A DNA stretch of 64,000 nucleotides from an uncultured Flavobacteriaceae bacterium (GCA_963768235.1 CAVYHF010000016.1:7718-71717), one strand, 5' to 3'. Positions 41,415-63,283 are shown, numbered from the stretch's first letter. Numbers and translations: made by a program. The notes: generated by a model from the letters alone, not told the origin.

Positions 41415-41456
41415 GTTTAAAATTTACGAATTCTATAATCTGATAATTAATTGGTT

Positions 41457-43376: not shown

Positions 43377-43377
43377 T

Positions 43378-44826: not shown

Positions 44827-44829
44827 ATT

Positions 44830-47706: not shown

Positions 47707-47724
47707 ATAGAAATAGTATAAACA

Positions 47725-47760
47725 GAAACCGCTCCTTAGGATGAACTAAGAAACGGTTTC
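47725..47760. terminator. hairpin between convergent MFS and acs genes
   Basis: GAAACCG ... CGGTTTC outer stem with an inner CTTAG/CTAAG pairing. Confidence 0.6.
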
Positions 47761-47793
47761 ATAGGTTTTCAATTGCTATTAAACAAAATTGGA

Positions 47794-49701
47794 TTATAGC
47801 GCATTCTTAATGATTTCCTCTACAACCTCAGGATTCAATAAGGTACTGATATCCCCAAGGTCGGAAGTGTCCTTACCTGCGATTTTCCGTAAAATTCGTC
47901 GCATGATCTTTCCGCTTCTTGTTTTAGGTAGTCCAGGTACAAATTGAATTTTGTTCAACTTGGCAATTGGTCCAATATGCTCGGTAATCTGTTGATTGAT
48001 TTCCATACGGAGATCATCTTTATCACGCACTTCACCAGCTTCTTTAAGGATGACATAGCCATACAGGGCATTTCCCTTAATATCATGGGGGAAACCAACA
48101 ATCGCGGATTCGGCAACAGCAGGGTGTTCGTTTATTGAATCTTCGATTGGTGCCGTACCTAAATTATGACCGGAAACAATAATCACATCATCAACCCTAC
48201 CGGTAATTCTGTAATACCCAACAGCATCCCTACTGGCACCATCACCCGTAAAGTACATGTTCTTATACGCTGAAAAATAAGTGTCTCGATAGCGTTCGTG
48301 GTTGCCCCAAATGGTTCTGGCAATCCCTGGCCATGGGTATTTAATGCACAATCGTCCTTCTACTTGATTACCTTTTAATTCCTCTCCATTTTCATCCATC
48401 AATGCTGGCTGTACCCCAATGAATGGTAAGGTCGCAAAAGTGGGTATTGTAGGTGTTACATAGGGTATGGGCGAGATCATAATTCCACCTGTCTCTGTTT
48501 GCCACCAAGTGTCGACAACTGGACTCCGATTTTTACCCACATTATAATTATACCAATGCCAAGCATCCTCATTAATGGGTTCACCCACTGTACCCAAGAC
48601 CTTTAAGGATGATAGATCATATTTTTCAACGAATTCCAAGTTCTCTTTAGCTAAGGCTCTAATAGCGGTTGGGGCAGTATAGAATTGGTTTACCTTGTGT
48701 TTTTGGACCACATCCCAGAAGCGACCATAATCCGGATAGGAAGGAACCCCTTCGAACATTACCGTGGTGGCACCATTTGCCAACGGGCCATAAACAATGT
48801 AGGAGTGCCCGGTTATCCAGCCAATATCAGCAGTACACCAATACACATCATCTTTTTTATATTGGAAAATATTCTTAAAAGTATAAGCAGTATAAACCAT
48901 ATAGCCGGCACAAGAGTGAACCATGCCTTTTGGTTTGCCCGTTGATCCGGAAGTATACAGAATGAAAAGCCAATCTTCCGCATCCATGATTTCTGCCGGG
49001 CAGTCAGCGCTGGCATCTTTCATAAGCGGCGCCAACCACTTATCACGACCTTTTTTTAAATTAATGTTACTATTAATACGTTTGGCAACCAATACTGTAT
49101 CAACACCAGGACAATAATCTAAAGCAGTGTCCACAATACCCTTTAAATCAATGGTTTTATTTCCGCGATAAGAACCATCCGAGGTAAGGACCAATTTACA
49201 ATCGGAATCATTTATTCTAGTCGCAAGGGCACTCGAGGAAAAACCGGCGAAAACGACTGAATGTATCGCACCGATTCGGGCACATGCCAGTACCGATACG
49301 GCCAATTCCGGAATCATAGGAAGATAAATGCAGACCCTATCTCCTTTTTTGATGCCATTTTCCTTAAGAACATTAGCCATTTTGCAGACCTGTTCATGCA
49401 ATTGTCCATAAGTAATATGTTGGGCCTCTTCGTCGGGATCGTTAGGTTCAAAAATAATTGCGGTCTTATCTCTACGGATTGTCAAATGCCTGTCAATGCA
49501 ATTCTCGGTAATGTTCAATTTTGCACCTTGAAACCATTTTACCTCGGGTTTGGTAAAATCCCATTCCAAGACCTTGTCCCATTTTTTGCGCCAAAGAAAA
49601 TGTTCCTCTGCGATTTCTTCCCAAAAACCCTCTGGATTTCGAATTGCTTTTCTATAAACTTGAAAGTACTCCTCTAGGTGTTTAATGTGGTAGTTACTCA
49701 T
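47794..49701 (-). CDS. acs: acetyl-CoA synthetase (AMP-forming)
   Basis: 635 aa with YTSGSTGKPKG AMP-binding motif and C-terminal PKTRSGKIMRR. Confidence 0.97.
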   Translation of the reverse strand: MSNYHIKHLEEYFQVYRKAIRNPEGFWEEIAEEHFLWRKKWDKVLEWDFTKPEVKWFQGAKLNITENCIDRHLTIRRDKTAIIFEPNDPDEEAQHITYGQLHEQVCKMANVLKENGIKKGDRVCIYLPMIPELAVSVLACARIGAIHSVVFAGFSSSALATRINDSDCKLVLTSDGSYRGNKTIDLKGIVDTALDYCPGVDTVLVAKRINSNINLKKGRDKWLAPLMKDASADCPAEIMDAEDWLFILYTSGSTGKPKGMVHSCAGYMVYTAYTFKNIFQYKKDDVYWCTADIGWITGHSYIVYGPLANGATTVMFEGVPSYPDYGRFWDVVQKHKVNQFYTAPTAIRALAKENLEFVEKYDLSSLKVLGTVGEPINEDAWHWYNYNVGKNRSPVVDTWWQTETGGIMISPIPYVTPTIPTFATLPFIGVQPALMDENGEELKGNQVEGRLCIKYPWPGIARTIWGNHERYRDTYFSAYKNMYFTGDGASRDAVGYYRITGRVDDVIIVSGHNLGTAPIEDSINEHPAVAESAIVGFPHDIKGNALYGYVILKEAGEVRDKDDLRMEINQQITEHIGPIAKLNKIQFVPGLPKTRSGKIMRRILRKIAGKDTSDLGDISTLLNPEVVEEIIKNAL

Positions 49702-49734
49702 TTTAATTGTTTTTAGGTGGTTCCTACATAATAT

Positions 49735-49743
49735 GTTTTGTGC
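49735..49743 (-). promoter_or_regulatory. GCACAAAAC motif 33 nt upstream of the acs ATG
   Basis: This is the short form of the 15-mer found upstream of the porin operon, in the same orientation and at nearly the same distance from the ATG. Confidence 0.3.
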
Positions 49744-50101
49744 ACGTATGCTATTTTTTCGATTATTTTATGGCATAATTGACGATGGCCCTTTGCCAGC
49801 ATCATTATCGCCATTTCTACATTACGATTTACGGAGTATTTTTCCGAATCTTACTTTCGTTCTACCAACTATAAAGTTAATCATAAATGATGGTATTCTG
49901 CCTTCTGAAAGCATCTTTTATAGGCTTAGCAAGACATGGTTAGCCCAATTTCAATCTACCATCCATGAACCACTTCTGATAATCATTATCTTCTTTTGAA
50001 AAATTGTTTTTTTGGTTGTTTGTACCAAACTAATTGTTGTGTTTGTTCATTCCAAAATTGCGCTGGACATTCGATGCTCTATTTATAAAACTCCTGATAC
50101 T

Positions 50102-50326
50102 TCATGATTTGGTTTTCTTAGAATTAAACAGTCCAAACCAATTGGGATTAAGTACCTTCAGTTTGATGAGCACCCAAAGAATGACAACAAAGCAGACGCC
50201 CATTACAATAGAGTTCATAGGACTAATTGGAGTTTCGCTCTCATATTTAAAACGCAGGTACAAGGAAACAATGGCGTATATACAGATAAAGATATCCGAT
50301 GCCAATGGTTTAAGACGTAATTTCAT
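50102..50326 (-). CDS. possible small two-TM membrane protein
   Basis: 74-aa ORF with two hydrophobic helices, 50 nt downstream of the response regulator. No family recognised. It overlaps an equally long plus-strand ORF. Confidence 0.35.
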   Translation of the reverse strand: MKLRLKPLASDIFICIYAIVSLYLRFKYESETPISPMNSIVMGVCFVVILWVLIKLKVLNPNWFGLFNSKKTKS

Positions 50327-50359
50327 TTAACTGACTTTTATTAGACATAGGTGTTGTTT

Positions 50360-50374
50360 GCACACAAAACCAAT
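50360..50374 (+). promoter_or_regulatory. second exact copy of 15-mer GCACACAAAACCAAT
   Basis: Exact match to the minus-strand 15-mer at 57048-57062, but in the opposite orientation. It also forms part of an imperfect hairpin just after the response regulator stop. Confidence 0.25.
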
Positions 50375-50376
50375 GA

Positions 50377-50745
50377 TTAACTAAGTAGTCCAAGTATTTC
50401 TGAAACTATCTTTTTTACTGAAAATGGCTTGGTTAAATATTTATCAACTCCAAGTTTTAAGCCTTTTTCAATATCTGAAACTTTATTTTTAGCTGTTAAG
50501 AACACGACCTTGGTGTTCTTTAGCATTTCACTGTTCTTTATGTGTTCTAATGTTTGGTAACCATCCACATTGGGCATCATTATATCCAATAAAACAACGT
50601 CAGGTACATTGCTTTGTAAAATATGTAATGCCTCGCTACCATCTCTCGCAATATATACTTCAAAATCCTGTTTTTTGAACGCATATTCCAAAGTCATTAC
50701 AATATTTGGTTCGTCATCGACGATCAATATTTTTTTCATTGCCAA
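50377..50745 (-). CDS. stand-alone receiver (CheY-like) response regulator, no output domain
   Basis: 122 aa. Acidic pocket VDDE, phospho-acceptor LLDIMMP, FLTAK and TKPF motifs. The protein ends right after the receiver fold. Confidence 0.9.
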   Translation of the reverse strand: MAMKKILIVDDEPNIVMTLEYAFKKQDFEVYIARDGSEALHILQSNVPDVVLLDIMMPNVDGYQTLEHIKNSEMLKNTKVVFLTAKNKVSDIEKGLKLGVDKYLTKPFSVKKIVSEILGLLS

Positions 50746-50757
50746 TAGTGATTAAAT

Positions 50758-53448
50758 TTAATTAAAAGGTAGCTTAAAACAAAAGGTTGAGCCAACTTTA
50801 GTGCCTTTTTCCACCCAAATTTTACCATTGTGTTTTTCAATGATTTGTTTACTAATTGCCAAACCTAATCCGCTACCCTGGGGCTTGATTGTATTTTGGT
50901 TTTCTGATTGATAGAATTTATTAAAAATATAATTTATATCCTCGTCAGGAATTCCTTTACCGTTATCTTTCACATAGATTTCGACACAATTATTGCCCAG
51001 TTTATAATCAAGCGTAATTACTCCTTTTTTAGGCTCACAGAATTTAATTGAATTGGATAGTAAATTAGTAAGTACTTGTAGAATTCTATCCTCGTCGTAG
51101 GGCAGTTCAAGTTTGAAACTGTTGTGGTTCACGATCTTGATTTCTTTATTGGCTGCTATGTGCTGGATGTTACCTATTGCTTTTTTTAAGGTTTTTTGAA
51201 TGTTTCTTTTTTTTAAGTTTAGCTGTTGTCTACCTGTAGAAAGCTTCTCGAAATCAAGTATGTTGTTAATCAATCGGGAAAGCCTATCAGAGTCGCTCAC
51301 AATGTTTTCCAGAAATATTTTCTTTAAATCAGATGGCATATCACCATCCTCATCCATCAAAAGTTCAGATGCTGCCCTAATTCCCGTAATTGGCGTTTTC
51401 AATTCATGGGCAATGGTATCCAAAAACTCATCTTTCTGTTTGTCCTTTGTTAGAAGTTTTTCATTTGCATGTTTTAATTGTGATGTAAGGTCTGTAAGTT
51501 CTGCAGATTTTTCCTGAAGCACCTTATTGCTACTGATGGTTTCTTTAGACTCTTCCAATATCTTCAACACTTCAGGTAAACTAATTTCCTGTTCTTTTAC
51601 TACCCCCGCTATTAGTATTTTAGCTGATGCACCACCAATACTACCCGTCAATAGTTTTTCGGAAAAATTAATCAAACGGGCATCGGCCATTTGAGTATCA
51701 TTGTTGATATTATATTTCCTAAAGAATAGGTTCAACGCACGTTGTGTTCTAGCTTCTCCCAAAAATTTGGTCAATACATTTTTAATATCCGCCACATAAG
51801 CTTCCCCTTTCCAAACAAGGGCGTTATCTTGTAAAGAGGAAAAGTTCTTACTATCAACGAACATTTCGGCATAATTACGCTCTCTGTAATGACCTTTAAA
51901 GGCTAAGGAAATGATCATATAGCAAAAGACGTTTACCAGGATACTCCAGAAAAATGCATGAGCGGCAGGAGTTAAAAAATCTAATCCGAAAAGCCCATAA
52001 GGTTTTAATGCAGTAATTCCGAACAAGCCGAAATCGGTAAAATCACTTGATCCGGTAAATGCCTCGATGGTAAATGGTAGTATTAGCGTATAAGTGGAAA
52101 TTAAAAATCCAACTATAATCCCGATAATTGATGCCAATGATGAACCACGATTCCAAAAAAGGCCAATAAAAAAAGAAGGTGCTAATTGGGCAATTATCAC
52201 AAAAGAAATTAGGCCAATGGAATACAATGACAATTCTATCGAAAAGTTGATATAGAAGATATATGCGAGTATGATAATTGTAAAAATGGAAATTCGTCTT
52301 ATATTCTTGATATAAGAGGCATTTTGCTCAGGTTTGGCTTTAAGGAATTTATCTAAAAATCCATATGGAATAATCAGGTTGTTACTGATCATTTTCGAGA
52401 GGGCCAAGGTTGAAACCACCACCATGGATATCACTGCGGAAAAGCCTCCCAGGAAAACCAGAAGGGCCAAAAAAGTATTGCCGCTATTCAATGGAAGTAA
52501 CAAAGTATAGTATTCTGCATTAACAGTTTCATCAAAAGTCAACTTACCTGCCCAAGCAATAAATATAACGAAGATGTTGAATAAGAATAAATACAACGGG
52601 AATAGCCAAATTGCTTTTTTTAGATGTTTTTCCCTACTATTTTCAATAACTGCTACCTGGAATTGCCTAGGCAATAAAAATATAGCCGTAAATGAAAGCA
52701 TCATTATGAAAAACCAGTTAAAACCACTTTCTAGATCAGGCAGCTTTGACAAGTTATCAAAATTAGCAGTTTTTGAAATTTGCCCATAAATATCCTCGGT
52801 ACCATCAAAGAGATAATAGGTAACATAGACCCCGACAATAAGGAAAAAGGTCAGTTTTAAAATTGATTCGAAAGCTACAGTAGCAACGATTCCTTTATGC
52901 TTTTCGGAAGCATCGGTTGCTTGGGTGCCAAAAAACGTTGCGAAAATCGCCAGAATCAAGGCGATATAAAAGGTGGAATCTTTAAAAATACTTATACCGA
53001 ATTTATGCGGTTCGATGGCCATGATTCCAAAGGTCTCAGCGACTGCTTTTAGTTGTAGGGAGATATAAGGAACCATGGCCGTAAAACATAAAACAGTGAT
53101 CAAGGCACCTAAAAACCTGCTGTTGCCATATCGTAACGATATGAAATCAGCAATAGACGATATCTTATGTCGTTTTGAGATTCGAATGATTTTGCGGAGA
53201 AGGACTATCCATAAAGGAATTGCAATCGCAGGCCCCAAATAAATGGGCAAAAAACCAACCCCGGAATTAGCGGCCATACCCACACTACCATAGTAGGTCC
53301 AAGCGGAGCAATATACTGCCAGTGATAAGGTATAAATATATGGATTATTGACCCATTTGCTTTTTGAATTCTTCTCGGCAATAAAGGCGATATAGAATAA
53401 TATCGCCAAGTAAACTATAATAATAATTATTAAACCATAATTACTCAT
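50758..53448 (-). CDS. sodium:solute symporter (SLC5)-fused sensor histidine kinase with STAC-like linker
   Basis: 896 aa. The N-terminal ~500 aa are a 13-TM SSS-like domain. It has the linker ARLINFSEKLLTGSIGGASAKILIAGV, a coiled coil, H-box IAHELKTP, N-box LLSNSIKF, G-boxes DNGKGIP / GSGLGLAI, and no receiver domain. Confidence 0.9.
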   Translation of the reverse strand: MSNYGLIIIIIVYLAILFYIAFIAEKNSKSKWVNNPYIYTLSLAVYCSAWTYYGSVGMAANSGVGFLPIYLGPAIAIPLWIVLLRKIIRISKRHKISSIADFISLRYGNSRFLGALITVLCFTAMVPYISLQLKAVAETFGIMAIEPHKFGISIFKDSTFYIALILAIFATFFGTQATDASEKHKGIVATVAFESILKLTFFLIVGVYVTYYLFDGTEDIYGQISKTANFDNLSKLPDLESGFNWFFIMMLSFTAIFLLPRQFQVAVIENSREKHLKKAIWLFPLYLFLFNIFVIFIAWAGKLTFDETVNAEYYTLLLPLNSGNTFLALLVFLGGFSAVISMVVVSTLALSKMISNNLIIPYGFLDKFLKAKPEQNASYIKNIRRISIFTIIILAYIFYINFSIELSLYSIGLISFVIIAQLAPSFFIGLFWNRGSSLASIIGIIVGFLISTYTLILPFTIEAFTGSSDFTDFGLFGITALKPYGLFGLDFLTPAAHAFFWSILVNVFCYMIISLAFKGHYRERNYAEMFVDSKNFSSLQDNALVWKGEAYVADIKNVLTKFLGEARTQRALNLFFRKYNINNDTQMADARLINFSEKLLTGSIGGASAKILIAGVVKEQEISLPEVLKILEESKETISSNKVLQEKSAELTDLTSQLKHANEKLLTKDKQKDEFLDTIAHELKTPITGIRAASELLMDEDGDMPSDLKKIFLENIVSDSDRLSRLINNILDFEKLSTGRQQLNLKKRNIQKTLKKAIGNIQHIAANKEIKIVNHNSFKLELPYDEDRILQVLTNLLSNSIKFCEPKKGVITLDYKLGNNCVEIYVKDNGKGIPDEDINYIFNKFYQSENQNTIKPQGSGLGLAISKQIIEKHNGKIWVEKGTKVGSTFCFKLPFN

Positions 53449-53635
53449 AGTATCTTTCTAATATGATATAGGAAATTATAATCGATACCAACCAGATTGA
53501 GAAGACCGCAAAATAAAAAAAAGGAATGCCAAAAATGGAATCATCTATATTGAAAACCAATAATAAAGGCACATTTAAAATCAATAATAGACCTATGGAT
53601 AGGATTATCAATTTTTGTTCGTGACGTTTTTTCAT
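53441..53635 (-). CDS. small two-TM membrane protein translationally coupled to the sensor kinase
   Basis: 64-aa hydrophobic ORF whose stop overlaps the kinase start by 8 nt. It lies immediately downstream of a terminator, so it is the first gene of the operon. Confidence 0.55.
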   Translation of the reverse strand: MKKRHEQKLIILSIGLLLILNVPLLLVFNIDDSIFGIPFFYFAVFSIWLVSIIISYIILERYYE

Positions 53636-53663
53636 TTTAATTGGCTGGTATTATAAATATAAG

Positions 53664-53694
53664 AAAAAAGCAGTACTCCAAAGTGAAGCACTGC
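53664..53694 (-). terminator. intrinsic terminator after actP
   Basis: On the minus-strand RNA, GCAGUGCU / AGUACUGC pairs fully (one G-U) and is followed by U6. On the plus strand the same position would be an A-C mismatch. Confidence 0.65.
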
Positions 53695-53720
53695 CTTATA
53701 CAATTATTAACTAATTTGTC

Positions 53721-55496
53721 TTAATGGTTGCTAGCTTCACCAGCACCACTAGGGATTCTAATGCTTTCAACCATTTCCTGCACATTCTCTGGTGGTGGTG
53801 CGGTCATTCTTGAAACCACCACAGATATGATTATATTGACAATCATTGCAATTGTTCCAAAACCTTCTGGCGATGTGCCAAACCACCATTCACTGGCCGG
53901 TCTAGCATCCATAACACCAATTAATCCGGTTTTATAACGAATCATGTAGAATAACATTAATGTGATACCAACAATCATACCTGCAATTGCCCCTTTGCTA
54001 TTCATTCTTTTATCAAAAATCCCCAAAATAATAGCTGGAAAGAATGATGCGGCAGCAAGACCAAAGGCCAAGGCTACTACCGCGGCGACGAACCCCGGCG
54101 GATATATTCCAAAAATACCTGCAATAATGATCGCAAACAAAATAGCGATACGTGCAGCCAATAATTCTCCCTTTTCAGAAATATTTGGTTTGATTTGCTT
54201 TTTAATCAAATCATGGGATATCGACGTAGAAATCACCAATAATAATCCCGCTGCTGTTGACAAGGCTGCCGCCAAACCGCCCGCTGCAACCAATGCGATT
54301 ACCCAGTTTGGTAAATTAGCGATTTCAGGATTGGCCAATACCATTATATCCCTATCGACATAAAGCTCATTTGATGAACTATTGGCATTTGATATTAGAC
54401 GTTCACCATTTGCTCCACGAGCATCAGTAAATGCCGGTTTTTTTCCTTCTAAAGCACTACCGGCAACATATTGAATTTTTCCATCATTATTCTTATCAGT
54501 CCAAGCAATTAAACCTGTGTCTTCCCAATTTTTAAACCATTGAGGAATTTCCTTATACGTTTTATTATCTACCGTTTCGATTAGGTTTGTTCTTGCAAAG
54601 ACAGCGATTGCAGGTGCAGTTGTGTATAATATAGCAATGAACAATAAAGCCAAACCTGCTGATTTACGTGCATCTTTAACTTTAGGCACTGTAAAGAACC
54701 TAACAATCACATGCGGTAATCCTGCTGTACCTGCCATTAGTGCAAGCGTAATCGCAAAAACATCCCAAGTGGACTTAGTTCCGCTGGTATATTCGTTAAA
54801 GCCTAATTGTGTATGTAATGCATCCAATTTATCCAAAAGAAAAGCTCCACCTTCAAGCTTAGCACCCATACCTATTTGTGGAATGGGATTCCCGGTCATT
54901 TGAAATGAAATAAAAATAGCAGGAACCATAAAAGCAAAAATCAGTACACAATATTGTGCAACTTGGGTATAGGTAATCCCTTTCATTCCTCCTAAAAAAG
55001 CAAATACAAGAACAACGGCCATTCCGATGATAACTCCAATATTGATATCGACTTGTAAGAATTGTGAAAATACAATTCCCACGCCTCTCATTTGTCCTGC
55101 TACGTAAGTAAACGAAACTATCAAGGCACATATAACTGCAACGGTCCTCGCCGTATTCGAATAATATCTATCTCCAATAAAGTCAGGTACTGTAAATTTC
55201 CCGAATTTCCTAAGATAGGGTGCGAGGAGTAGTGCAAGAAGCACATATCCACCGGTCCACCCCATAAGATAAACCGAACCATCATACCCGGCAAAAGAAA
55301 TGATTCCGGCCATAGAGATGAATGATGCGGCACTCATCCAATCTGCTGCGGTGGCCATTCCGTTCGCCAATGGGGATACACCACCACCAGCTACATAAAA
55401 CTCCTTAGTTGATCCCGCTCTAGCCCATATAGCAATTCCAAAATAAAGGGTGAAAGTAATCCCAACTAATATCCAAGTCCATAATTGAACACTCAT
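53721..55496 (-). CDS. actP: cation/acetate-type sodium:solute symporter, large subunit
   Basis: 591-aa SSS-family permease preceded by a DUF4212 small subunit and located next to acs. Substrate assignment is by context. Confidence 0.85.
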   Translation of the reverse strand: MSVQLWTWILVGITFTLYFGIAIWARAGSTKEFYVAGGGVSPLANGMATAADWMSAASFISMAGIISFAGYDGSVYLMGWTGGYVLLALLLAPYLRKFGKFTVPDFIGDRYYSNTARTVAVICALIVSFTYVAGQMRGVGIVFSQFLQVDINIGVIIGMAVVLVFAFLGGMKGITYTQVAQYCVLIFAFMVPAIFISFQMTGNPIPQIGMGAKLEGGAFLLDKLDALHTQLGFNEYTSGTKSTWDVFAITLALMAGTAGLPHVIVRFFTVPKVKDARKSAGLALLFIAILYTTAPAIAVFARTNLIETVDNKTYKEIPQWFKNWEDTGLIAWTDKNNDGKIQYVAGSALEGKKPAFTDARGANGERLISNANSSSNELYVDRDIMVLANPEIANLPNWVIALVAAGGLAAALSTAAGLLLVISTSISHDLIKKQIKPNISEKGELLAARIAILFAIIIAGIFGIYPPGFVAAVVALAFGLAAASFFPAIILGIFDKRMNSKGAIAGMIVGITLMLFYMIRYKTGLIGVMDARPASEWWFGTSPEGFGTIAMIVNIIISVVVSRMTAPPPENVQEMVESIRIPSGAGEASNH

Positions 55497-55526
55497 AAAT
55501 TTTATTATTTTTGGTTAGTTCTTAGA

Positions 55527-55787
55527 TTACTCGTCGTAACCGTATTTTTTATCTAGTTTGTTCATTAATCTCACATAAACGAAGATCAAGATCACGAATA
55601 CATAAATAGAACCTTGTTGTGCAAACCAGAAGCCTAGTTTGAAGCCACCTAAACGTATTTCGTTTAGTGCTTCCCTGAAAAGAATTCCTGCTCCGTATGA
55701 AACAAGGAACCAGATAGAAAGAAGAATAATCAGGTACCTCAAGTTTTCCTTCCAATACGCAGTGGCATTTTTTTGCTTTTCACTCAT
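55527..55787 (-). CDS. DUF4212 putative solute:sodium symporter small subunit
   Basis: 86-aa two-TM protein directly upstream of the symporter. This is the typical small-subunit arrangement. Confidence 0.85.
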   Translation of the reverse strand: MSEKQKNATAYWKENLRYLIILLSIWFLVSYGAGILFREALNEIRLGGFKLGFWFAQQGSIYVFVILIFVYVRLMNKLDKKYGYDE

Positions 55788-55799
55788 AGTTGTTGGTTT

Positions 55800-57020
55800 T
55801 TATAGATAAATCATTGCTTGGAGGGTAAGTGTTCCCACATCTGAACTTCCAAACTTTTGATTTTTGTACTCTAGTGTAAGTTTAGAGTTATGCCCACTAA
55901 GATATGCATTTGCACCGATTCCAAGTATATTCCTATTGTCATCTACAGCATCATAGCTGTTTGAGGCAAATGAAACGTATGGCTGGAATCTGGTTTTCGT
56001 TATATTACCTGCGAATACATATCCTATATGCGAATATACCATACTGCCTGTTCCATATGCACTGAACAGGTAATCGGTGCCATAATCATTACTCTGGTAT
56101 GTGGCATAGGCCGTTAAGGCGCTACCATCGTCTCCAAGCGGAGTATCGTAAAAAGCGTCAATAGCGAAAATTTTGACATCTTGCTGCTCCAGGTTCCCGG
56201 TGGCATCTGCGATGACAGATCCAGCTGGATGAAAAAAGAAACCAGCCCCGACATTGAATATCCTTTCACCTCCTAAGCAAGTGCCATTCTTGTATGGTAA
56301 GAAATTGGATTCTTGATTCAAAAAGTTGAAGTCAAAGTAACCAGCATAAGCTTTTCCAGCATCTTTGGAACCTATCAATCGTTTACCGGCATAGACTGCA
56401 GGGCCACCATTTTCAGGTGTTCTTGTGTCTAGACTATTTGTTATTGCGTCATTGATTGCTATGCGATATTGAAGTTTACCAAAATTACCCTTGGCGAAAA
56501 TACCCAAATGTCTAGCAAACTGATCTGATAGGCCGAGCGTAGACCATGACTGTCTATTGTTGTCCAAAGTCATGAAGTTCAATGTACTTTGATTGTTCAA
56601 TCTTGAAATTCCATTGTAATAATGCAATCCGCCACCAACAACATGGTCTTTGCCCACATTGTACTGTGCCCACGCGCCATGAAAGAATAATTGGGAGCCT
56701 TCTCCTTTGCCAACCGGTGAAAGTGTCTCACTATTAAGACTATTGAGTCCAAAGTGGGTCAAAATCATAAATTTTTTGTTGATTTGTGCAAACATCAGTA
56801 CTCTTGCCCGGCGCAGATTAAAACTGGTATTGCTCACATCATCAGGTACATCACCATTGTAGGTGCCCTGGACCTGAGCCCATGAAATTATTCGTAGGTA
56901 TTTATCTCCATTTTCATCGAACTTCATTTTAAAACCACCATTATAATCTGGTGACCCTTGTGAATACATAAGCTGAAAAGAGCAAAACACCCCTAACAGT
57001 AGCATAAATTGTCTCTTCAT
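55800..57020 (-). CDS. outer-membrane porin-like beta-barrel protein
   Basis: Signal peptide MKRQFMLLLGVFCSFQLMYSQ (start at 57020; ORF open to 57092). Alternating Gly/aromatic-rich beta-strand pattern throughout. First gene of the DUF4212-actP operon. Confidence 0.65.
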   Translation of the reverse strand: MKRQFMLLLGVFCSFQLMYSQGSPDYNGGFKMKFDENGDKYLRIISWAQVQGTYNGDVPDDVSNTSFNLRRARVLMFAQINKKFMILTHFGLNSLNSETLSPVGKGEGSQLFFHGAWAQYNVGKDHVVGGGLHYYNGISRLNNQSTLNFMTLDNNRQSWSTLGLSDQFARHLGIFAKGNFGKLQYRIAINDAITNSLDTRTPENGGPAVYAGKRLIGSKDAGKAYAGYFDFNFLNQESNFLPYKNGTCLGGERIFNVGAGFFFHPAGSVIADATGNLEQQDVKIFAIDAFYDTPLGDDGSALTAYATYQSNDYGTDYLFSAYGTGSMVYSHIGYVFAGNITKTRFQPYVSFASNSYDAVDDNRNILGIGANAYLSGHNSKLTLEYKNQKFGSSDVGTLTLQAMIYL

Positions 57021-57047
57021 AAGTTTTAAGGGTTTAGTTCGTAACAA

Positions 57048-57062
57048 ATTGGTTTTGTGTGC
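57048..57062 (-). promoter_or_regulatory. 15-mer GCACACAAAACCAAT 31 nt upstream of the porin ATG
   Basis: Exact repeat of 50360-50374 and related to GCACAAAAC upstream of acs. The downstream leaders also share GTwrGAAC and TAAAAAC-like blocks. Confidence 0.4.
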
Positions 57063-57129
57063 TTTGCGAAGCTCTCTAAAAGAATGCATCAATAAAAAAA
57101 CAATATATATATATGTTAATTAAATATAG

Positions 57130-57549
57130 TTAATCTCTAAAACGTTCCCATTTTATAAGCATAAATTTATCCCCAAGCTCCGTTATGACGACACCTGCGC
57201 CTGATAAGTTCCTGGTATCTTGAAAGTAAGATGAGAGTTCGTTTGCATTGAAAATCTTGTATGTAGGGTGATAATCAGGATTATATGGCCTTTTGATATT
57301 GTACTTTTTGACCCAGTTCAGGATGCTCACGTGTGAAATACCCAAAATACGTTCTATTTCACGATACGATAACCCCTCTAAATATAGCTGTAGTGCTTTG
57401 TTTACATAGTATTGGTCAATGCTCTTGCCAATTTTGTTTACAGAGAAGAAATAATTACATGATTTGCATTTATAACGCTGTCTTTCATTAATGATTCCGC
57501 TCTTTACAAATTGTTCAGAACCACAATTGGGACATTCATTGATTTTCAT
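57130..57549 (-). CDS. InsA-like zinc-ribbon plus helix-turn-helix protein (orphan, no transposase partner)
   Basis: CPNCGS...CKSC zinc ribbon followed by the HTH LSYREIERILGISHVSILNWVKKY, as in IS1 InsA, plus a ~60-aa extra C-terminal domain. No DDE ORF is nearby. Confidence 0.65.
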   Translation of the reverse strand: MKINECPNCGSEQFVKSGIINERQRYKCKSCNYFFSVNKIGKSIDQYYVNKALQLYLEGLSYREIERILGISHVSILNWVKKYNIKRPYNPDYHPTYKIFNANELSSYFQDTRNLSGAGVVITELGDKFMLIKWERFRD

Positions 57550-57601
57550 ATATATTAATTTAGCATAAATATAGTAAATTAGCAATAAAGTGACAATTGT
57601 T

Positions 57602-57636
57602 TGTATTATTGAGCCTGAATTATGTGTATTATTGAG
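57602..57636 (+). repeat. 12-bp perfect direct repeat TGTATTATTGAG x2, 23-bp period
   Basis: Read directly in the spacer between the InsA-like gene and the DUF294 gene. Confidence 0.45.
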
Positions 57637-57739
57637 TTGGAAAGTAATTCTTTAAACTTATTTCCTTTAAGATTGGTTATTTATGAATTATATGACAACA
57701 TTCAGGTTTTAACCTGCCTTCAATACTTAATTTTATAGT

Positions 57740-59650
57740 ATGAAAAATACAATTGCCGAACGTATCTATGATTTTCTAAAGAATTTCCCTCCTTTTAACT
57801 TTTTGGAAAGTAATCAATTGATGGCTATTTGTAAAAATGTCAGGGTTGGTTATTATGAAAAGGACAATTTTGTTTTTGAAAAGGATGATGAACTGCATGA
57901 TTCATTTTATGTTGTGAAAGATGGCGCAGTCGGAATTTTTAGGGAAAGCGATATTTTGGTCGATGAATGTGATGAGGGTGATATTTTTGGATTAAGGGCA
58001 CTCATTCGAAAAAGCAAGTATAGGCTAAGTGCTCAGACAATTGAAGAGAGTATAGTGTATAGCATATCTTCACAACTTTTAGAAGAGTTTATAACGAGCA
58101 ATGTACGTGCCAACAAGTTTTTAATGGCAAGTTTTGCAACAAACACTTTAAATCCTAACATCGATAGCAGCAATGGTAGATTGTATTCCCTCGAAGGGGA
58201 ATTCAACCAAAATACAGAACACCTTACCCATGTACAGAATGTGCAATTTAAGAGGGCGCCTGTTACCTGTACTGAAAACACAAATATTGAAACTGCCGCA
58301 TTAACAATGACGGAGAAAAGGGTAGGCTCAATAATCATCACCAAGGAGAATATACCCAAGGGAATCATTACAGATAAGGACCTGCGAACCAAAATTGCTA
58401 CTGGTAGATTCAATATATTAGAAATGGTTACTCAAATCATGAGTTCTCCGCTCATAACGATTCCTGAGGCTACCTCAATTGCCGAAGCTCAAATAACAAT
58501 GCTTAGAAATAAGATCACCCATCTATGTATCACAAAAGATGGCACGATTGAGTCTGAACTTGTTGGTGTATTATCTGAACATGATATTGTTGTTTCACAA
58601 AGCAATAATCCATCATTCTTGATTAAGGAAATAAAAAGAGCCCAAAATTCAGAAATACTAAAGGATGTTCGCCAAAAGGCCCAAGGACTTATGCAACGCT
58701 ATCTTGATCAGCATATACCTGTGTTTTTTGTCTCTAAAATTGTTTCAGCCATAAATGAGGCCATATGCCATAAGGCTATTGAGCTTTCAATGGTAGAATT
58801 GGATCAAACTGCCCCTGTCCCTTTCTCCTGGCTTTCGCTAGGAAGTCAAGGTAGGAGAGAACAATTACTGATGACAGATCAAGACAATGCGCTTGTTTTT
58901 GCCGATGTTCCCATTGGGATATATGAGGAAACCAAATCCTATTTTCTAAAACTGGCAACCTTGGTTACTGAAAAATTAAATGATGTGGGATTTGAAATGT
59001 GCCCGGCTGAAATGATGGCGAGCAACCCTAAATGGTGCTTGTCACTGAGTGAATGGAAGGCACAGTTCAATGATTGGATTACCAAACCCGATGAGGACAA
59101 GATCATGCTTTCTACAATATTCTTTGATTATGATAAGGTTTATGGCGATAGTGATTTAGTTGATCAAATGTCTGATAGTATTTTTGATTCAATCGACACT
59201 TATGAAATATTTTTAAATTTCTTAGCATTAAACGCAATTAAAAATCCACCACCATTGAGTTTCTTTAGGCAATTTCTTGTAGAGCATGGTGGCGAACATA
59301 AAGATATGTTCGACATTAAAGCCCGGGCTATAATGCCTTTGGTTGATGCTGCAAGATTATTGGTTCTTTCTAAAAACATCAAAGATTATAATAATACAAT
59401 CCTAAGATTCCAAAAACTGGCAGACCTGGAGCCACAAAATAAAGACCTTTATAATACATGTATTGATGCCTTCAAAATCCTATTGCGCTTTAGAACAATA
59501 GAGGGATTAAGACTTGGTGATTCAGGAAGATTTATTGATCTTAAATCCTTGGGTAAATCAGATCGTTTAAAATTGAAAGGATGTTTTGGTCCGATCAAAG
59601 ATATTCAGGAGTTGATTAAAGTGCGTTTTAACCTTTCACAGTTGATGTAA
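57740..59650 (+). CDS. cyclic-nucleotide-binding / CBS pair / DUF294 nucleotidyltransferase protein
   Basis: 636 aa with an N-terminal cNMP-binding-like beta-roll (FVFEKDDELHDSFYVVKDGAVGIF...GDIFGLRAL), two CBS repeats, the Pol-beta NTase motif LGSQGRREQLLMTDQDNAL, and a helical C-terminal domain. Confidence 0.9.
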   Translation: MKNTIAERIYDFLKNFPPFNFLESNQLMAICKNVRVGYYEKDNFVFEKDDELHDSFYVVKDGAVGIFRESDILVDECDEGDIFGLRALIRKSKYRLSAQTIEESIVYSISSQLLEEFITSNVRANKFLMASFATNTLNPNIDSSNGRLYSLEGEFNQNTEHLTHVQNVQFKRAPVTCTENTNIETAALTMTEKRVGSIIITKENIPKGIITDKDLRTKIATGRFNILEMVTQIMSSPLITIPEATSIAEAQITMLRNKITHLCITKDGTIESELVGVLSEHDIVVSQSNNPSFLIKEIKRAQNSEILKDVRQKAQGLMQRYLDQHIPVFFVSKIVSAINEAICHKAIELSMVELDQTAPVPFSWLSLGSQGRREQLLMTDQDNALVFADVPIGIYEETKSYFLKLATLVTEKLNDVGFEMCPAEMMASNPKWCLSLSEWKAQFNDWITKPDEDKIMLSTIFFDYDKVYGDSDLVDQMSDSIFDSIDTYEIFLNFLALNAIKNPPPLSFFRQFLVEHGGEHKDMFDIKARAIMPLVDAARLLVLSKNIKDYNNTILRFQKLADLEPQNKDLYNTCIDAFKILLRFRTIEGLRLGDSGRFIDLKSLGKSDRLKLKGCFGPIKDIQELIKVRFNLSQLM

Positions 59651-60319
59651 ATGTTCAGTAGGATTTTCAATAAAAAAAAGACTGAATTTTGGAAGGATTA
59701 TAACGATCATTTCAAAAACAAACCTTCGCAGCAGATTGATGAGGTGCGATTTATCGTCTTTGATACAGAAACAACGGGCTTGGATATTAACAGTGACCGT
59801 ATTTTGGCAATTGGAGCTATTTCAATTTTTAAAATCGAGATGGATGTAGGTGATTCTCTTGAAATATATTTAAAACAAGAAATATTCAATGCTGATTCAG
59901 TAGAAATCCATGGAATATTAAAAGAAGGTAATACGGTCAAGCATACAGAAAAGGAAGCTATTATTTCATTTTTGGAATATGCCAGAAACGCCGTTTTAGT
60001 CGCCCATCATGCTGCGTTTGATGTTGCAATGATCAATGCATGTTTGAAAAGAATGGGATTGCCAAAATTAAAGAACAAAGTTCTTGATACTGGCATACTG
60101 TTCAAGAAAACCAATCTCTGTAGGAATAAGGAAAAACACTATTCCCTTGATCAACTAAGTGATACTTTCAATCTTAAAAAGCATGACCGTCATACCGCCT
60201 CTGGCGACGCTTTTCTTACAGGATTGATATTCCTTAAAATAATATCCAACTTAAAAAAATCAAGAAACATAGAATTGAATGACCTCTTTTTCAATTCAGC
60301 TAGAAGGGGGTTGCTCTAA
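59651..60319 (+). CDS. DEDDh 3'-5' exonuclease (DNA pol III epsilon-like)
   Basis: Exo motifs FDTETTG, VAHHAAFDVAM and HTASGDAFLT. Its ATG immediately follows the stop of the DUF294 gene. Confidence 0.9.
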   Translation: MFSRIFNKKKTEFWKDYNDHFKNKPSQQIDEVRFIVFDTETTGLDINSDRILAIGAISIFKIEMDVGDSLEIYLKQEIFNADSVEIHGILKEGNTVKHTEKEAIISFLEYARNAVLVAHHAAFDVAMINACLKRMGLPKLKNKVLDTGILFKKTNLCRNKEKHYSLDQLSDTFNLKKHDRHTASGDAFLTGLIFLKIISNLKKSRNIELNDLFFNSARRGLL

Positions 60320-60338
60320 GTTATTCTACCTGATTTCT

Positions 60339-61421
60339 TTAACTTGGAAAGAAAACAACGCCACTGGAAGAGTCCTTCTTGGCACCTGTAACAGAGCTTA
60401 AAACATTAATTTTTTGTTCTATTCTTAAAATTCCCATTAAAGCAAAAACCAGTGCTTCTTTGTTTTCTATTAGCTCTTTTGATGGTACAATAACTTCAAT
60501 GTTAGCTCCTAATTTTTTCTTTAAAGTTTCAATAAGGAAATCATTCAATGCGCCACCACCGGTTACCAATATCGTGGATTTTGTAGCGCTTGTATTTGCT
60601 TTAACCTGAATGGCAACTTGTTCGCATAAATGATGGATTGAAGTATGTAGCAAATTTTCAATGGAATCTTCAGTTGCTTCTATTATGGGAACCACCTTTT
60701 GTGTAAACCATTCAAAACCAGTAGATTTTGGAAAAGGTAATTTATAGTATTCCAAAGCATTCAATTGTTGAAGCATTGATGAATTTATTTTACCGGTACT
60801 GGCCAATTGGCCACCTTTGTCGTATTGCAAATCTATCTTCTGGGTAATGTGATTCAAAATCATATTGGCTAGCCCAATGTCATAGGCAATACGTTGGCCA
60901 TTTGTTTCAAAGGAAATATTACTTATTCCGCCAAGGTTTAAACAGAAATCATAATTGCCAAAAAACAACTGATCCCCAATCGGAACCAATGGCGCTCCTT
61001 GCCCATTTAAAGCAACATCATTTGTGCGAAAATCGCATACAACTTTGCATGCACTTTCATTGGCTAAATGCTGTCCGGAACCAATTTGGTAAGTGAGGCC
61101 ATTTTCTGGTTGATGATGTGTGGTATGTCCATGACTGGCAATAAAATCAACATGCAAATCATTTTCTATAATGAATATTTTTACTTGTTCTCCAAGCCAT
61201 TGGCCATAGGTATTGTTAAAAATTAAAAGCTCATCGGCAGATAGAAAAATCGAATTTTTCAGCTTTTCTTTTATTTTTGATGAATAGGAAATGCTTTTGG
61301 TTTGGTCTATTTTATATTCCCATCGGTCCTGGGTTTTTGAAATATGACAATAGGCAATATCAAGCCCATCTAAAGAGGTGCCGGACATTAATCCTATGAC
61401 TTTATATGTTTTAATTGCCAA
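60339..61421 (-). CDS. anmK: anhydro-N-acetylmuramic acid kinase
   Basis: GLMSGTSLDGLD N-terminal motif. 360 aa. Confidence 0.95.
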   Translation of the reverse strand: MAIKTYKVIGLMSGTSLDGLDIAYCHISKTQDRWEYKIDQTKSISYSSKIKEKLKNSIFLSADELLIFNNTYGQWLGEQVKIFIIENDLHVDFIASHGHTTHHQPENGLTYQIGSGQHLANESACKVVCDFRTNDVALNGQGAPLVPIGDQLFFGNYDFCLNLGGISNISFETNGQRIAYDIGLANMILNHITQKIDLQYDKGGQLASTGKINSSMLQQLNALEYYKLPFPKSTGFEWFTQKVVPIIEATEDSIENLLHTSIHHLCEQVAIQVKANTSATKSTILVTGGGALNDFLIETLKKKLGANIEVIVPSKELIENKEALVFALMGILRIEQKINVLSSVTGAKKDSSSGVVFFPS

Positions 61422-61571
61422 AATGAGGTTTCTTATGGTTCAAGAATAATGATGAAAGTTAATTAGATTCGTTTCAATGTAAAAAAAAAGTATTCTTTTT
61501 TTGACCAAAACCCTTTTTTAAATAGCCTTAATTTACGCAAGTCTCATTGATGAGATAAATTCTTAAGGTTT

Positions 61572-61617
61572 TATACCATTGATTTTTGACAAATTTATAC
61601 TATTGATTTTTAACAAA
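61572..61617 (+). repeat. tandem 22-bp repeat TATACYATTGATTTTTRACAAA x2 (24-bp period)
   Basis: 20 of 22 positions are identical. Related TTTTTGAC cores occur twice more in the same spacer. Confidence 0.45.
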
Positions 61618-61771
61618 AATGTGTATTTTTAGAAATTAATATTCATTGGCCGAAAACGCTTTAATTAAATATCGATTTTCCATTGTTATTTGAATGCTGT
61701 GATTAATGAAGCAAATGGTTTTTGACCATATACATCAACTGATTTATTAACCGATTATAAAGTAATACAAT

Positions 61772-63283
61772 ATGAGTAAGACTAAAAAAGAGAACACTTT
61801 AACCCGCCGAGATTTTGTGGGCAGAACTTTGGCCGCTTCTGCAGCGTTTACTATCGTGCCGTCGTATGCCGTTAGTGGATTGGGGCATGTAGCACCAAGT
61901 GACAAATTGAATATTGCCGGTATTGGTGTTGGGGGCATGGGACTTGCCAATTTAAAGAATTTGGAATCGCAAAATATTGTAGGTCTTTGTGATGTTGATT
62001 GGAAGTATGCCAAAGGTGCTTTTGATAGGTATCCAAACGCTAAAAAGTATTGGGATTGGCGTAAGATGTTTGATGAAATGGGTGATGAAATAGATGGAAT
62101 TGTTGTTGCTACCGCAGATCATACACATGCTATTATTTCTGCACATGCCATGACCATGGGCAAGCACGTATATCTTCAGAAGCCTTTGACCCACTCGGTT
62201 TATGAATCAAGATTAATGACAAAATTGGCCAAGGAGTATAAGGTGGCTACACAGATGGGTAACCAGGGCGCTTCAGGAGAAGGTGTTGCCAAAACATGTG
62301 AAATACTTTGGAGTGGTGCAATAGGGGATGTAAAGAAGGTAGAATCCTTTACCGATAGGCCCATATGGCCACAAGGCTTGAACAGCCCTGAAAGAGGTGA
62401 TTGGGTACCCGATACTTTAGATTGGGACCTGTTTACAGGACCTGCAAAAATGAAACCTTTCAATGAGGTTTACCATCCATGGAACTGGAGAGGATGGTGG
62501 GATTATGGTACTGGCGCACTGGGCGATATGGCCTGCCACATTTTGCATCCTGTTTTTGAGGGCTTAAAACTAGGGTATCCTACAAAGGCACAGGCAAGCT
62601 CGTCATTATTATTGAATGATTGTGCTCCGGTTTCACAGGCTGCTAAACTTACGTTCCCGGCAAGGGGAAGACAAGGGAAGATAAAGCTACCAGAAGTTGA
62701 TGTTCATTGGTACGATGGTGGTGTTAAGCCAGAATTACCCGACAATTGGCCAGCTGGTAAGGATCCAAATAAAGCTGGTGGAGGAACCTTCTTCTACGGA
62801 ACAAAAGATATTCTTCATGTAGGTTGTTATGGTGTTGAACCAGAATTGATGTCTGGCAAAAAAATATCCGCAGCAAAAACAGAAAGAAGGGTTGAGGATG
62901 AATTAGGACTGGCATGGAATAAGGGAGCCCATGAAATGGATTGGGTAAGAGCGTGTAAAGAAAGTCCCGAAAACAGAAAACCATGTACTTCCGACTTTGC
63001 TGAAGCCGGACCATTTAATGAAATGGTCGTTATGGGCGTACTTGCTGTTCGCTTACAGGCCTTGAACAAAATATTGGAATGGGACGGTGAGAAAATGGAA
63101 TTCACAAATATTGGTGCTAATGAGGAAATTAGAACTGTTATTAAAGATGGATTTGAAATTCACGATGGTCACCCAACGTTCAATAAGGAATGGACAGATC
63201 CAATGAATGCAGTTGCATATTCTCAGGAGTTGATCAAACATACCTACAGGGACGGCTGGTCATTACCTGATATGCCCGCATAG
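61772..63283 (+). CDS. Gfo/Idh/MocA family oxidoreductase with twin-arginine signal
   Basis: TAT signal TRRDFVGRTLAASAAF and Rossmann motif NIAGIGVGGMG. 503 aa. Confidence 0.9.
   Translation: MSKTKKENTLTRRDFVGRTLAASAAFTIVPSYAVSGLGHVAPSDKLNIAGIGVGGMGLANLKNLESQNIVGLCDVDWKYAKGAFDRYPNAKKYWDWRKMFDEMGDEIDGIVVATADHTHAIISAHAMTMGKHVYLQKPLTHSVYESRLMTKLAKEYKVATQMGNQGASGEGVAKTCEILWSGAIGDVKKVESFTDRPIWPQGLNSPERGDWVPDTLDWDLFTGPAKMKPFNEVYHPWNWRGWWDYGTGALGDMACHILHPVFEGLKLGYPTKAQASSSLLLNDCAPVSQAAKLTFPARGRQGKIKLPEVDVHWYDGGVKPELPDNWPAGKDPNKAGGGTFFYGTKDILHVGCYGVEPELMSGKKISAAKTERRVEDELGLAWNKGAHEMDWVRACKESPENRKPCTSDFAEAGPFNEMVVMGVLAVRLQALNKILEWDGEKMEFTNIGANEEIRTVIKDGFEIHDGHPTFNKEWTDPMNAVAYSQELIKHTYRDGWSLPDMPA

Follow-up and report, generated by a model that had tools for sequence, protein, structure and literature searches.

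The NTase and Exonuclease Genes

We analysed a 64,000-nt stretch of DNA from an uncultured Flavobacteriaceae bacterium (GCA_963768235.1 CAVYHF010000016.1:7718-71717; the window), in which two adjoining plus-strand genes at 57740-60319 encode a predicted sensor nucleotidyltransferase (NTase) and a DEDDh 3'-5' exonuclease. A sequence-only reading of the window had singled the pair out as an undescribed system, which it is not: Pflu5625, PP_0354/PP_0353 and PA3232-PA3235 are published CrbS/R targets for which deletion mutants exist, and the pair is a new, Flavobacteriaceae member of this known, biochemically uncharacterised operon family, a published CrbS/R (MxtR/ErdR) target. What is new relative to the published accounts is the coupling of the NTase and exonuclease genes, the pattern of sodium/solute symporter (SSS) genes beside them, the fold matches of the NTase module, the non-canonical cNMP pocket and the predicted membrane anchors of alphaproteobacterial partner exonucleases.

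The NTase gene (57740-59650) encodes a 636-amino acid (aa) protein of COG2905 type, the orthologue of PP_0354, PA3233 and Pflu5625. Its four kinds of Pfam domain are a cNMP-binding-like domain with a degenerate phosphate-binding cassette (57851-58099, residues 38-120; PF00027, E 8e-13), a CBS pair (58247-58591, residues ~170-284; two copies of PF00571, E 1.5e-21), a DUF294 Pol-beta-type NTase core (58676-59095, residues 313-452; PF03445, E 9e-43) and the helical 'substrate-binding' domain DUF294_C (59207-59629, residues 490-630; PF10335, E 8e-27), a member of the KNTase_C/HEPN clan without the nuclease motif. Each of them, including both CBS copies, exceeds its Pfam gathering score (145.9 bits against a cut-off of 21 for PF03445 and 94.3 against 22.5 for PF10335). 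The open reading frames (ORFs), domains and coordinates of the sequence-only reading are confirmed, as is the string LGSQGRREQLLMTDQDNAL in the protein. The identical domain set is shared by 120/120 of the closest homologues. The nearest relatives, at 60-91% identity, come from Maribacter and other Flavobacteriaceae; an identical protein lies on a JGI metagenome contig with its neighbours unchanged, and a search of 1.84 billion representatives places the family at 1,576 clusters (50% identity, E<=1e-30).

Conservation of the NTase was scored on an alignment of 117 diverse full-length homologues. In the catalytic motif G368-S-x-G-R-x-E-x5-D380-x-D382 (58841-58885), S369, R372 and E374 are invariant and G368, D380 and D382 are retained in 115, 114 and 112 of the 117 sequences, with the DxD missing from a few paralogues; the third carboxylate, D463 in IFFD (59126-59128), is invariant (117/117). 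From this conservation we conclude that selection maintains both the Pol-beta signature G-S...D-x-D and the third carboxylate. In DUF294_C, R556 is invariant and K527, D536 and R539 are nearly so.

The NTase had also been read as ligand-gated. Both CBS motifs, G-h-h-T-D-x-D and G-h-h-S-x-x-D, carry the ribose-binding signature G-h-h-[TS]-x-x-D and are conserved (G208 in 117/117 homologues, T211 in 113, D214 and D282 in 114 each), and among solved structures the pair resembles the CBS pairs 2ef7 and 2rif, of which 2rif contains bound AMP. The cNMP-like domain follows the family consensus F-G-[VLI]-R-[ASP]-L...Y...[TS]-A; the residue after G84 is V, L or I, with Glu never among the four commonest residues in the 117 homologues, and the canonical Arg position varies between L, R, A and V. 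The Gly-Glu plus Arg-[ST]-Ala cassette of functional cyclic-nucleotide binders of the CAP/PKA/PKG type is thus absent. Since the CBS motifs are kept and the cNMP cassette is non-canonical, the CBS pair is probably an adenosyl-ligand sensor that reads adenine nucleotides, whereas gating of the NTase by cAMP or cGMP is doubtful. The earlier wording 'cNMP-binding-like' was therefore apt, and it is the cyclic-nucleotide gating that falls into doubt.

The AlphaFold2 (AF2) model of the NTase (mean pLDDT 91, pTM 0.81) was compared with the PDB by Foldseek. The sole matches that span the NTase core and the C-terminal module are the GlnE adenylylation domain (3k7d, E 2.5e-8), DrrA-Rab8a (6yx5, 1.6e-7) and the GlnE deadenylylation domain (1v4a, 4.9e-7), at target-normalised TM-scores of 0.46-0.61; the remainder match the CBS or cNMP domains. 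Each of these three proteins acts on protein-AMP bonds. DUF294_C has previously been grouped with the C-terminal domains of GlnD and GlnE in the KNTase_C/HEPN clan, with the HEPN nuclease motif absent (PMC3710099).

The exonuclease gene (59651-60319; 222 aa) encodes the orthologue of PP_0353 and PA3232 (RNase_T, PF00929, E 1e-27), and the strings FDTETTG, HHAAFD and HTASGD are all present. Among 83 partner exonucleases from Bacteroidota, Pseudomonadota and Bacillota, the Exo I motif D38-T-E40 (59762-59770) retains D38 in 82 and E40 in all 83, the Exo II Asp D124 of HHAAFD (60020-60022) is kept in 82, and the Exo III motif H181-x4-D186 of HTASGD (60191-60208) keeps H181 in 80 and D186 in 79; all five residues are invariant among the Flavobacteriaceae exonucleases (alignment A3). 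Conservation of the NTase carboxylates (112-117/117) and of the DEDDh residues (79-83/83) is thus as the sequence-only reading had it, and both enzymes look catalytically competent from their motifs. The protein also has a family-specific N-terminal extension (59654-59749), basic and aromatic, with a helix at residues 2-19 predicted in the AF2 model and with W14/Y17/F21 invariant in alignment A3; in other lineages, it is swapped for other extensions or predicted membrane anchors.

The AF2 model of the exonuclease (pLDDT 84) has an ordinary DnaQ-like (RNase H-like) fold plus the extra N-terminal helix, and its best fold matches are the PolC exonuclease domain (9qpc, E 4.6e-12), Streptococcus DnaQ (8h2f), Pol III epsilon (2ido) and RNase T (3v9u), with query-normalised TM-scores of 0.65-0.72 for PolC/DnaQ/epsilon and 0.58-0.64 for RNase T. 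It shares fold and DEDDh motifs with these enzymes; unlike them, it is a stand-alone protein of 222 aa with its own N-terminal helix, tied genetically to a signalling-type NTase. The exonuclease exceeds the cut-off of TIGR00573, and the equivalog models for epsilon, PolC and RNase T all score far below theirs (NF004316, 82 of 196 bits; TIGR01406, 79.5 of 222.7; NF001688, 103 of 873; the best-scoring one, PRK09145, 110.7 of 189). On these scores and the gene context, we reject a proofreading subunit of the Pol III epsilon or PolC kind.

In the Alphaproteobacteria, the partner exonuclease has 479 aa in Ruegeria and 659 aa in Paracoccus, and the corresponding ORF in Neorhizobium has ~690 aa. The Ruegeria and Paracoccus proteins have the DEDDh domain at the C-terminus, behind two predicted hydrophobic (transmembrane) helices and a region without a Pfam match. 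A first impression of a HAMP/PAS module is not claimed, as Pfam gave no domain in the N-terminal 260-426 residues of these long exonucleases (PAS at E 0.11 only). The two helices are predicted to anchor the alphaproteobacterial exonuclease at the membrane, which also contains the symporter; such anchoring sits poorly with a proofreading role and fits a membrane-located substrate. A gene for a small membrane protein sits between the NTase and exonuclease genes in the alphaproteobacterial operons; this protein, encoded directly after the NTase, has 165-194 aa and no Pfam match (L082:9799-10317, L087:8811-9308, L085:8848-9432). In Paracoccus, a stand-alone receiver is additionally inserted ahead of the 659-aa exonuclease with its predicted membrane anchors.

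Conservation of the Gene Pair and Its Neighbours across Phyla

The NTase-exonuclease pair is itself an invariant unit, with strict coupling in three phyla. In the window, the exonuclease ATG (59651) directly follows the NTase stop codon TAA (59648-59650) with no gap, as the sequence-only reading had noticed. Bacteroidota loci were taken from the best 80 matches to a query alignment of 16 sequences, all of which proved to be Bacteroidota; the exonuclease lies directly downstream of the NTase in 74 of the 75 loci with room for it, and the gap is -4 to +3 nt in 61 of these 74. Loci from further afield came from tblastn against PLSDB (15 plasmid or chromid loci, 14 from Pseudomonadota and one from Bacillota) and from five genera of Bacillaceae, which are small, non-random samples; the exonuclease adjoins the NTase in 13/15 and 5/5 of them, respectively. 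Intact NTases beside an SSS gene with no exonuclease occur in Skermanella and Sinomicrobium. In a Gelidibacter metagenome-assembled genome (L007:3302-8532), a tandem array NTase-Exo-NTase-Exo adjoins acs, implying that a single duplication took in both genes. No natural fusion of the two proteins was seen among the listed homologues, which were not searched exhaustively for one.

A gene for acs, a symporter, DUF4212 or an SLC5-type kinase lies within 10 kb of the pair in 31/77 Bacteroidota loci (21/52 of those with full flanks), and an SSS-superfamily ORF of any kind is found in the flanks of 21/77. The ~1.4 Mb of flanking DNA holds one SSS gene outside this type of island, and this rough internal background suggests that chance would place an SSS neighbour in a few percent of 20-kb intervals. 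Among the PLSDB loci, an SSS-family symporter adjoins the pair in 11/15, and these symporters fall into three subfamilies whose small subunits are unrelated or absent. The DUF4212 plus VC_2705 type stands beside the pair in Ruegeria, Skermanella, Paracoccus and Neorhizobium, and DUF485 plus ActP in P. aeruginosa, Methylocella, Rhodovulum, Microvirga and Aeromonas; in Salinivibrio, the neighbour is a Na+/sugar symporter at the end of galETKM, and in Vibrio penaeicida it is an SSS-like transporter. The exonuclease-less NTase of Sinomicrobium lies 1 kb from an SGLT-like symporter. The recurrent companion in two phyla is therefore an SSS symporter of any substrate class, not acetate activation. 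The sequence-only reading had the pair beside ActP/DUF4212 symporters and acs in other phyla; the symporter link holds outside the phylum, whereas acs was found in only 2/15 PLSDB loci and the Bacillaceae, taken up below, depart from the pattern.

In other Flavobacteriaceae (~15 loci), the pair is more often found at the opposite end of the island, convergent with acs. As it occurs at either end, the linkage of pair and island has survived rearrangement.

Two loci of Flavobacterium/Flavobacteriaceae (L059:18537-20381 and L060:19753-21622) have ~1.8 kb without a VC_2705-type match between the gene for the kinase's small membrane protein and the porin gene, where a different carrier may have replaced the symporter. 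In Halobacillus and Pontibacillus (L098 and L100, ~1-8000), the pair adjoins DUF2627 and a divergent bkdR-ptb-bcd-buk-lpdV branched-chain acyl operon; this bkd linkage could be mere conserved synteny or another link to short-chain acyl compounds.

Published Genetics of the Operon

The published Pseudomonas operons (PP_0354/PP_0353, Pflu5625, PA3233/PA3232) have the architecture found here, a cNMP-like/CBS/DUF294 protein followed by an RNase_T exonuclease, and share its company of actP or another SSS symporter, acs and an SLC5-type sensor kinase. The NTases are ~25% identical, and the pair in the window is divergent from a DUF4212-type symporter operon, whereas the Pseudomonas pair lies downstream of yjcH-actP. 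According to the literature, CrbS/R regulates the pair together with acs and actP.

In P. fluorescens SBW25, the Pflu5625 protein is upregulated on acetate in a CrbS-dependent manner and its promoter has a CrbR motif, while its deletion gives no phenotype; the authors restate the prediction of Aravind and Koonin that the protein regulates by nucleotidylation (PMC5715377). In P. putida KT2440, ErdR binds the PP_0354 promoter and acetate induces PP_0354 (PMC8402216), which forms an operon with the downstream exonuclease gene PP_0353; each deletion is neutral on 20 mM acetate, growth on pyruvate is impaired by deletion of PP_0353 or actP-I and not of PP_0354, and pp_0353 and actP-I are said to behave alike in transposon fitness at 5 mM acetate (PMC9927547). 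The same operon ranks with the genes that depend most strongly on MxtR/ErdR, and deletion of either PP_0354 or PP_0353 lowers growth on propionate, although the authors of this preprint of September 2026 still call the function of the operon unclear (10.64898/2026.09.07.749794). In P. aeruginosa, PA3232-PA3235 are induced ~16-fold on propionate (PMC9765439). The sequence-only reading had looked for knock-outs with an acetate phenotype; none is seen at 20 mM for either gene of P. putida or for the P. fluorescens NTase, and the phenotypes appear on pyruvate and propionate instead.

A random-barcode transposon sequencing (RB-TnSeq) survey of 2016 (Price et al.) reported, for Shewanella amazonensis and P. 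stutzeri with lactate and D-alanine as substrates, cofitness between DUF4212 subunits and a gene close by labelled 'COG2905 (RNAse T domain protein)'; its authors speculated that symporter expression depends on this gene (bioRxiv 072470). Given this cofitness and the shared phenotype of exonuclease and transporter mutants, the VC_2705-family symporter is the probable functional partner of the pair in the window.

A Proposed Antagonistic Regulatory Unit

We propose, with a probability of roughly 40%, that the pair is an antagonistic regulatory unit in which the NTase writes an inhibitory nucleoside monophosphate (NMP) mark, the exonuclease erases it and uptake by the symporter is thereby controlled; we infer what the acceptor is, that the mark inhibits and that the exonuclease serves as its eraser. 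The activity of the NTase would be set by its N-terminal sensors, the CBS pair and the cNMP-like domain with its non-canonical pocket. It would move an NMP onto a hydroxyl of the target, most likely a protein, which would be inhibited, and the exonuclease would cleave the same phosphodiester, freeing 5'-NMP so that activity is regained. The process controlled here and in most Pseudomonadota would be uptake through an SSS-family symporter, in the window the DUF4212/VC_2705-type monocarboxylate carrier, so that the pair would tune the import of short-chain carboxylates and not acetate activation itself. Loss of the NTase would leave transport unrestrained, which would be harmless on pyruvate and costly on toxic propionate; on loss of the exonuclease, the mark would build up and transport would fail.

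The direction of the proposed switch is suggested by the published mutants, since loss of the exonuclease mimics loss of the transporter and loss of the NTase is silent on pyruvate. A protein hydroxyl is favoured as the acceptor because of the GlnE/DrrA-like fold, the three SSS subfamilies that share the transporter core only, and the predicted membrane anchors. GlnE, GlnD and Legionella DrrA/SidM have in common with the NTase a Pol-beta core followed by a helical C-terminal domain of the KNTase_C clan, and the logic proposed here, a reversible protein-NMP mark under metabolite control, would be theirs too. The NTase differs from them in its sensor domains and in the lack of any sequence-profile similarity, and the eraser would be a DEDDh exonuclease in place of the second NTase domain of GlnE, the HD domain of GlnD or the PPM-fold SidD.

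The 5'-NMP that DEDDh enzymes free is normally joined through its phosphodiester to a 3'-oxygen, and it is conceivable that the oxygen of a Tyr, Ser or Thr takes its place. A nuclease acting as an eraser of AMP has a precedent, since RNase Z is a deAMPylase that removes the AMPylation made by SelO (PMC12663964). As proposed for the pair, a nuclease-fold enzyme erases protein AMPylation there; SelO and RNase Z differ in that the writer is a pseudokinase and the eraser a metallo-beta-lactamase, and in that they are not an operon pair. The more specific version of our proposal, in which the exonuclease is a dedicated protein de-nucleotidylase and the NMP is placed on the SSS symporter or a tightly associated membrane protein, is possible and on the whole doubtful.

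Several points weigh against the proposed writer and eraser. DEDDh enzymes are not known to cleave protein-nucleotide bonds. No SSS gene lies within 8-10 kb of the pair in the five Bacillaceae genera or in ~70% of the Bacteroidota loci, so the symporter is not its sole or universal target. The relation of the NTase to GlnE and DrrA is at the level of the fold only, in the models: searches of PDB sequences with the single NTase sequence and with a profile of the NTase module found no GlnE, GlnD or DrrA, and the module profile retrieved nothing significant. The cofit gene of Shewanella and P. stutzeri is read here as the exonuclease from a label that is ambiguous in the source. In line with the statement of the sequence-only reading that no biochemical function has been assigned, no biochemical study of any DUF294/COG2905 family member was found in the literature as of September 2026. 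Finally, the asymmetry of the knock-outs is accounted for equally well if the exonuclease is the effector and the NTase a mere restraint on it.

This last arrangement is the basis of the best-surviving alternative, which we regard as unlikely. Following the logic of MntA-HepT, the NTase would nucleotidylylate and silence its partner exonuclease, and the active exonuclease would process or stabilise an RNA needed for expression of the symporter. In both systems, an NTase gene adjoins a nuclease gene, and DUF294_C belongs to the Pfam clan of the HEPN/KNTase_C partners of minimal NTases; the pair is, moreover, self-contained and invariant even without a nearby symporter, the exonuclease start abuts or overlaps the NTase stop codon, suggesting stoichiometric co-production, and the pyruvate phenotype comes from the exonuclease with the NTase silent. 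Against this stand the intact NTases that lie beside SSS genes without any exonuclease, the membrane anchor predicted for the alphaproteobacterial exonucleases, which would be odd in an RNA-processing enzyme, and three unrelated types of symporter operon, each of which would need a recognisable RNA. Apart from the generic DEDDh motifs, no further Tyr, Ser or Thr stands out as conserved among the 83 exonucleases. The likeness to MntA-HepT is itself limited: HepT is a HEPN RNase (R-x4-6-H) and the partner here a DEDDh enzyme, DUF294_C lacks R-x4-6-H (PMC3710099, Table 1), and the NTase has 636 aa and sensor domains, unlike the minimal NTase MntA. Nor does the pair behave as a toxin system of the MntA-HepT kind, since strains without the NTase are viable and show almost no phenotype.

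Quite unlikely is a scheme in which the NTase adds tails to RNA 3' ends and the exonuclease trims them, as in PAPD5/PARN, so that the stability of transport-gene transcripts is set through an mRNA, small RNA or tRNA. Writing and erasing of tails is classically the work of a Pol-beta NTase combined with a DEDDh exonuclease. RNase T is among the best folds for the exonuclease, partner exonucleases show weak matches to the Rv2179c-like exoribonuclease family, and mRNA degradation is what the authors of the P. putida study speculated on (PMC9927547). The NTase fold, however, is that of GlnE/DrrA, with no poly(A) polymerase, CCA-adding enzyme or terminal uridylyltransferase (TUTase) among the top 50 structural matches; Pfam shows no RNA-binding domain in the pair, Rfam at a permissive threshold finds no structured RNA or RNA family in 47000-62000, and the alphaproteobacterial exonucleases are predicted to be membrane-anchored.

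It is improbable that the pair handles a nucleotide messenger, with the NTase producing an oligonucleotide (linear or cyclic) or some other nucleotide signal that the exonuclease would break down. Such a messenger would suit the sensor domains ahead of the NTase, and the alphaproteobacterial exonuclease stands where a signalling-type protein anchored in the membrane would have its output; dinucleotides are degraded by DEDDh enzymes such as Orn, and Cap18 occurs among the structural matches of the exonuclease, at rank 49. Yet the NTase has neither CD-NTase similarity nor a PADLOC match, in the loci examined no gene for a receptor or effector varies together with the pair, and the exonuclease is closer to PolC, epsilon and RNase T than to Orn. 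An anti-phage defence system, whether cyclic oligonucleotide-based (CBASS) or other, was also considered and rejected, as PADLOC gave no match for the NTase and matched the exonuclease to generic DEDDh models only. An incidental adjacency of a housekeeping DNA/RNA exonuclease and an unrelated signalling NTase, for which the database names 'DNA polymerase III subunit epsilon' and 'PolC-type DNA polymerase III' would speak, already looks untenable in view of the abutting or overlapping codons conserved in three phyla (74/75, 13/15, 5/5), the Gelidibacter duplication that copied both genes as one unit, their co-regulation in a single ErdR-dependent operon, and the NCBIfam epsilon/PolC equivalog scores, all far below cut-off.

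If the NTase-exonuclease unit writes and erases its mark on an SSS symporter or a closely associated membrane protein, solute uptake would be gated by adenylate or metabolite status through reversible nucleotidylylation. It would bring a new eraser fold for AMPylation, and with it a new enzyme class in this reversible modification, and the first post-translational on/off switch for bacterial SLC5 transporters, and would explain why exonuclease mutants behave like transporter mutants. In a family that ranges over at least Bacteroidota, Pseudomonadota and Bacillota, it would also help to explain how bacteria limit their uptake of acetate, propionate, pyruvate and lactate, substrates of importance in gut colonisation, marine carbon turnover and acetate-based bioprocesses. 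Comparison of the loci narrows the search for the target from 'acetate metabolism' to the SSS transporter or something else at the membrane.

The Surrounding Acetate/Propionate Island

The acetate island that the sequence-only reading placed around the pair was recovered with its acs, receiver, kinase, symporter, DUF4212 and porin genes, all on the minus strand. Facing the pair are an outer-membrane porin (55800-57092; a weak ExtI-like match, NF040900, E 1e-17, below cut-off), the DUF4212 small symporter subunit (55527-55787; PF13937, E 3e-36; TIGR03647) and the VC_2705-family sodium/solute symporter (53721-55496; TIGR03648, 864 bits); the porin is conserved next to DUF4212 in 10 loci. There follow a 64-aa two-helix membrane protein (53441-53635), whose gene overlaps the kinase start by 8 nt, and an 896-aa sensor histidine kinase (50758-53448) with HisKA and HATPase_c and an SLC5-like membrane domain, of CrbS/CbrA type without a fused receiver. 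The N-terminal membrane half of the kinase is pulled in by an SSS profile (jackhmmer) and has weak BLASTP similarity to the symporter (E 0.022). At least 10 other loci have the 64-aa protein in this position immediately before the kinase. By analogy with DUF4212 and DUF485, it may serve the sensor's transporter-like domain as a small subunit.

Beyond the kinase lie a 122-aa stand-alone receiver (50377-50745; PF00072, E 3.5e-31) without a DNA-binding output and acetyl-CoA synthetase (acs, 47794-49701; ACAS_N, AMP-binding and AMP-binding_C). The 675-bp gap between them (49702-50376) is unusually long, related loci having ~20-80 bp or a second acs-like gene there, and it holds short unsupported ORFs only and no Rfam match. 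Upstream, the island adjoins genes for two methylmalonyl-CoA mutase subunits, a GH76 glycosyl hydrolase, MeaB, and biotin carboxyl carrier, biotin carboxylase and carboxyltransferase proteins (36293-46371). Since all of these except GH76 belong to the propionate pathway, the whole region is one of acetate and propionate assimilation; the propionate genes are of interest here in view of the poor growth on propionate of Pseudomonas strains that lack either gene of the pair.

As in the CrbS/R regulon, an SLC5-domain sensor kinase is encoded in the window, and a DNA-binding regulator of the CrbR/ErdR type is not. The analogy is thus incomplete, with a kinase lacking a fused receiver, a receiver lacking a DNA-binding domain and no ACTU-like site. 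The divergent intergenic region between the NTase operon and the helix-turn-helix (HTH)-porin-symporter operon (57586-57739, 154 bp) has no CrbR ACTU-like site (e.g. TACGACTAAAGTCTAAA) and contains no GTC triplet, so that no GACnnnnGTC core is possible in it. It carries a direct repeat, TGTATTATTGAG, at 57602-57613 and 57625-57636, which was found in this region only and is not significant (13/100 shuffles reach two matches). No shared upstream element was seen by eye in 78 NTase upstream regions, on which no formal motif finder was run.

The first gene of the minus-strand operon (57130-57585) encodes a 151-aa IS1 InsA-like protein with a zinc ribbon and an HTH and without a transposase catalytic domain. 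An InsA-like protein of 137-151 aa, with a conserved C-terminal GAG..TELGDKFMLIKWERF[KR]D and no DDE domain, heads the porin-DUF4212-symporter operon in 4/4 Flavobacteriaceae loci that reach that far, the window and three others (L037:9363-9782, L071:21238-21651, L057:16344-16559). The protein looks like a domesticated transposase fragment and is a candidate for the DNA-binding regulator that the kinase and receiver otherwise lack. In Saprospiraceae, its position is occupied by a 96-aa ArsR-type HTH protein.

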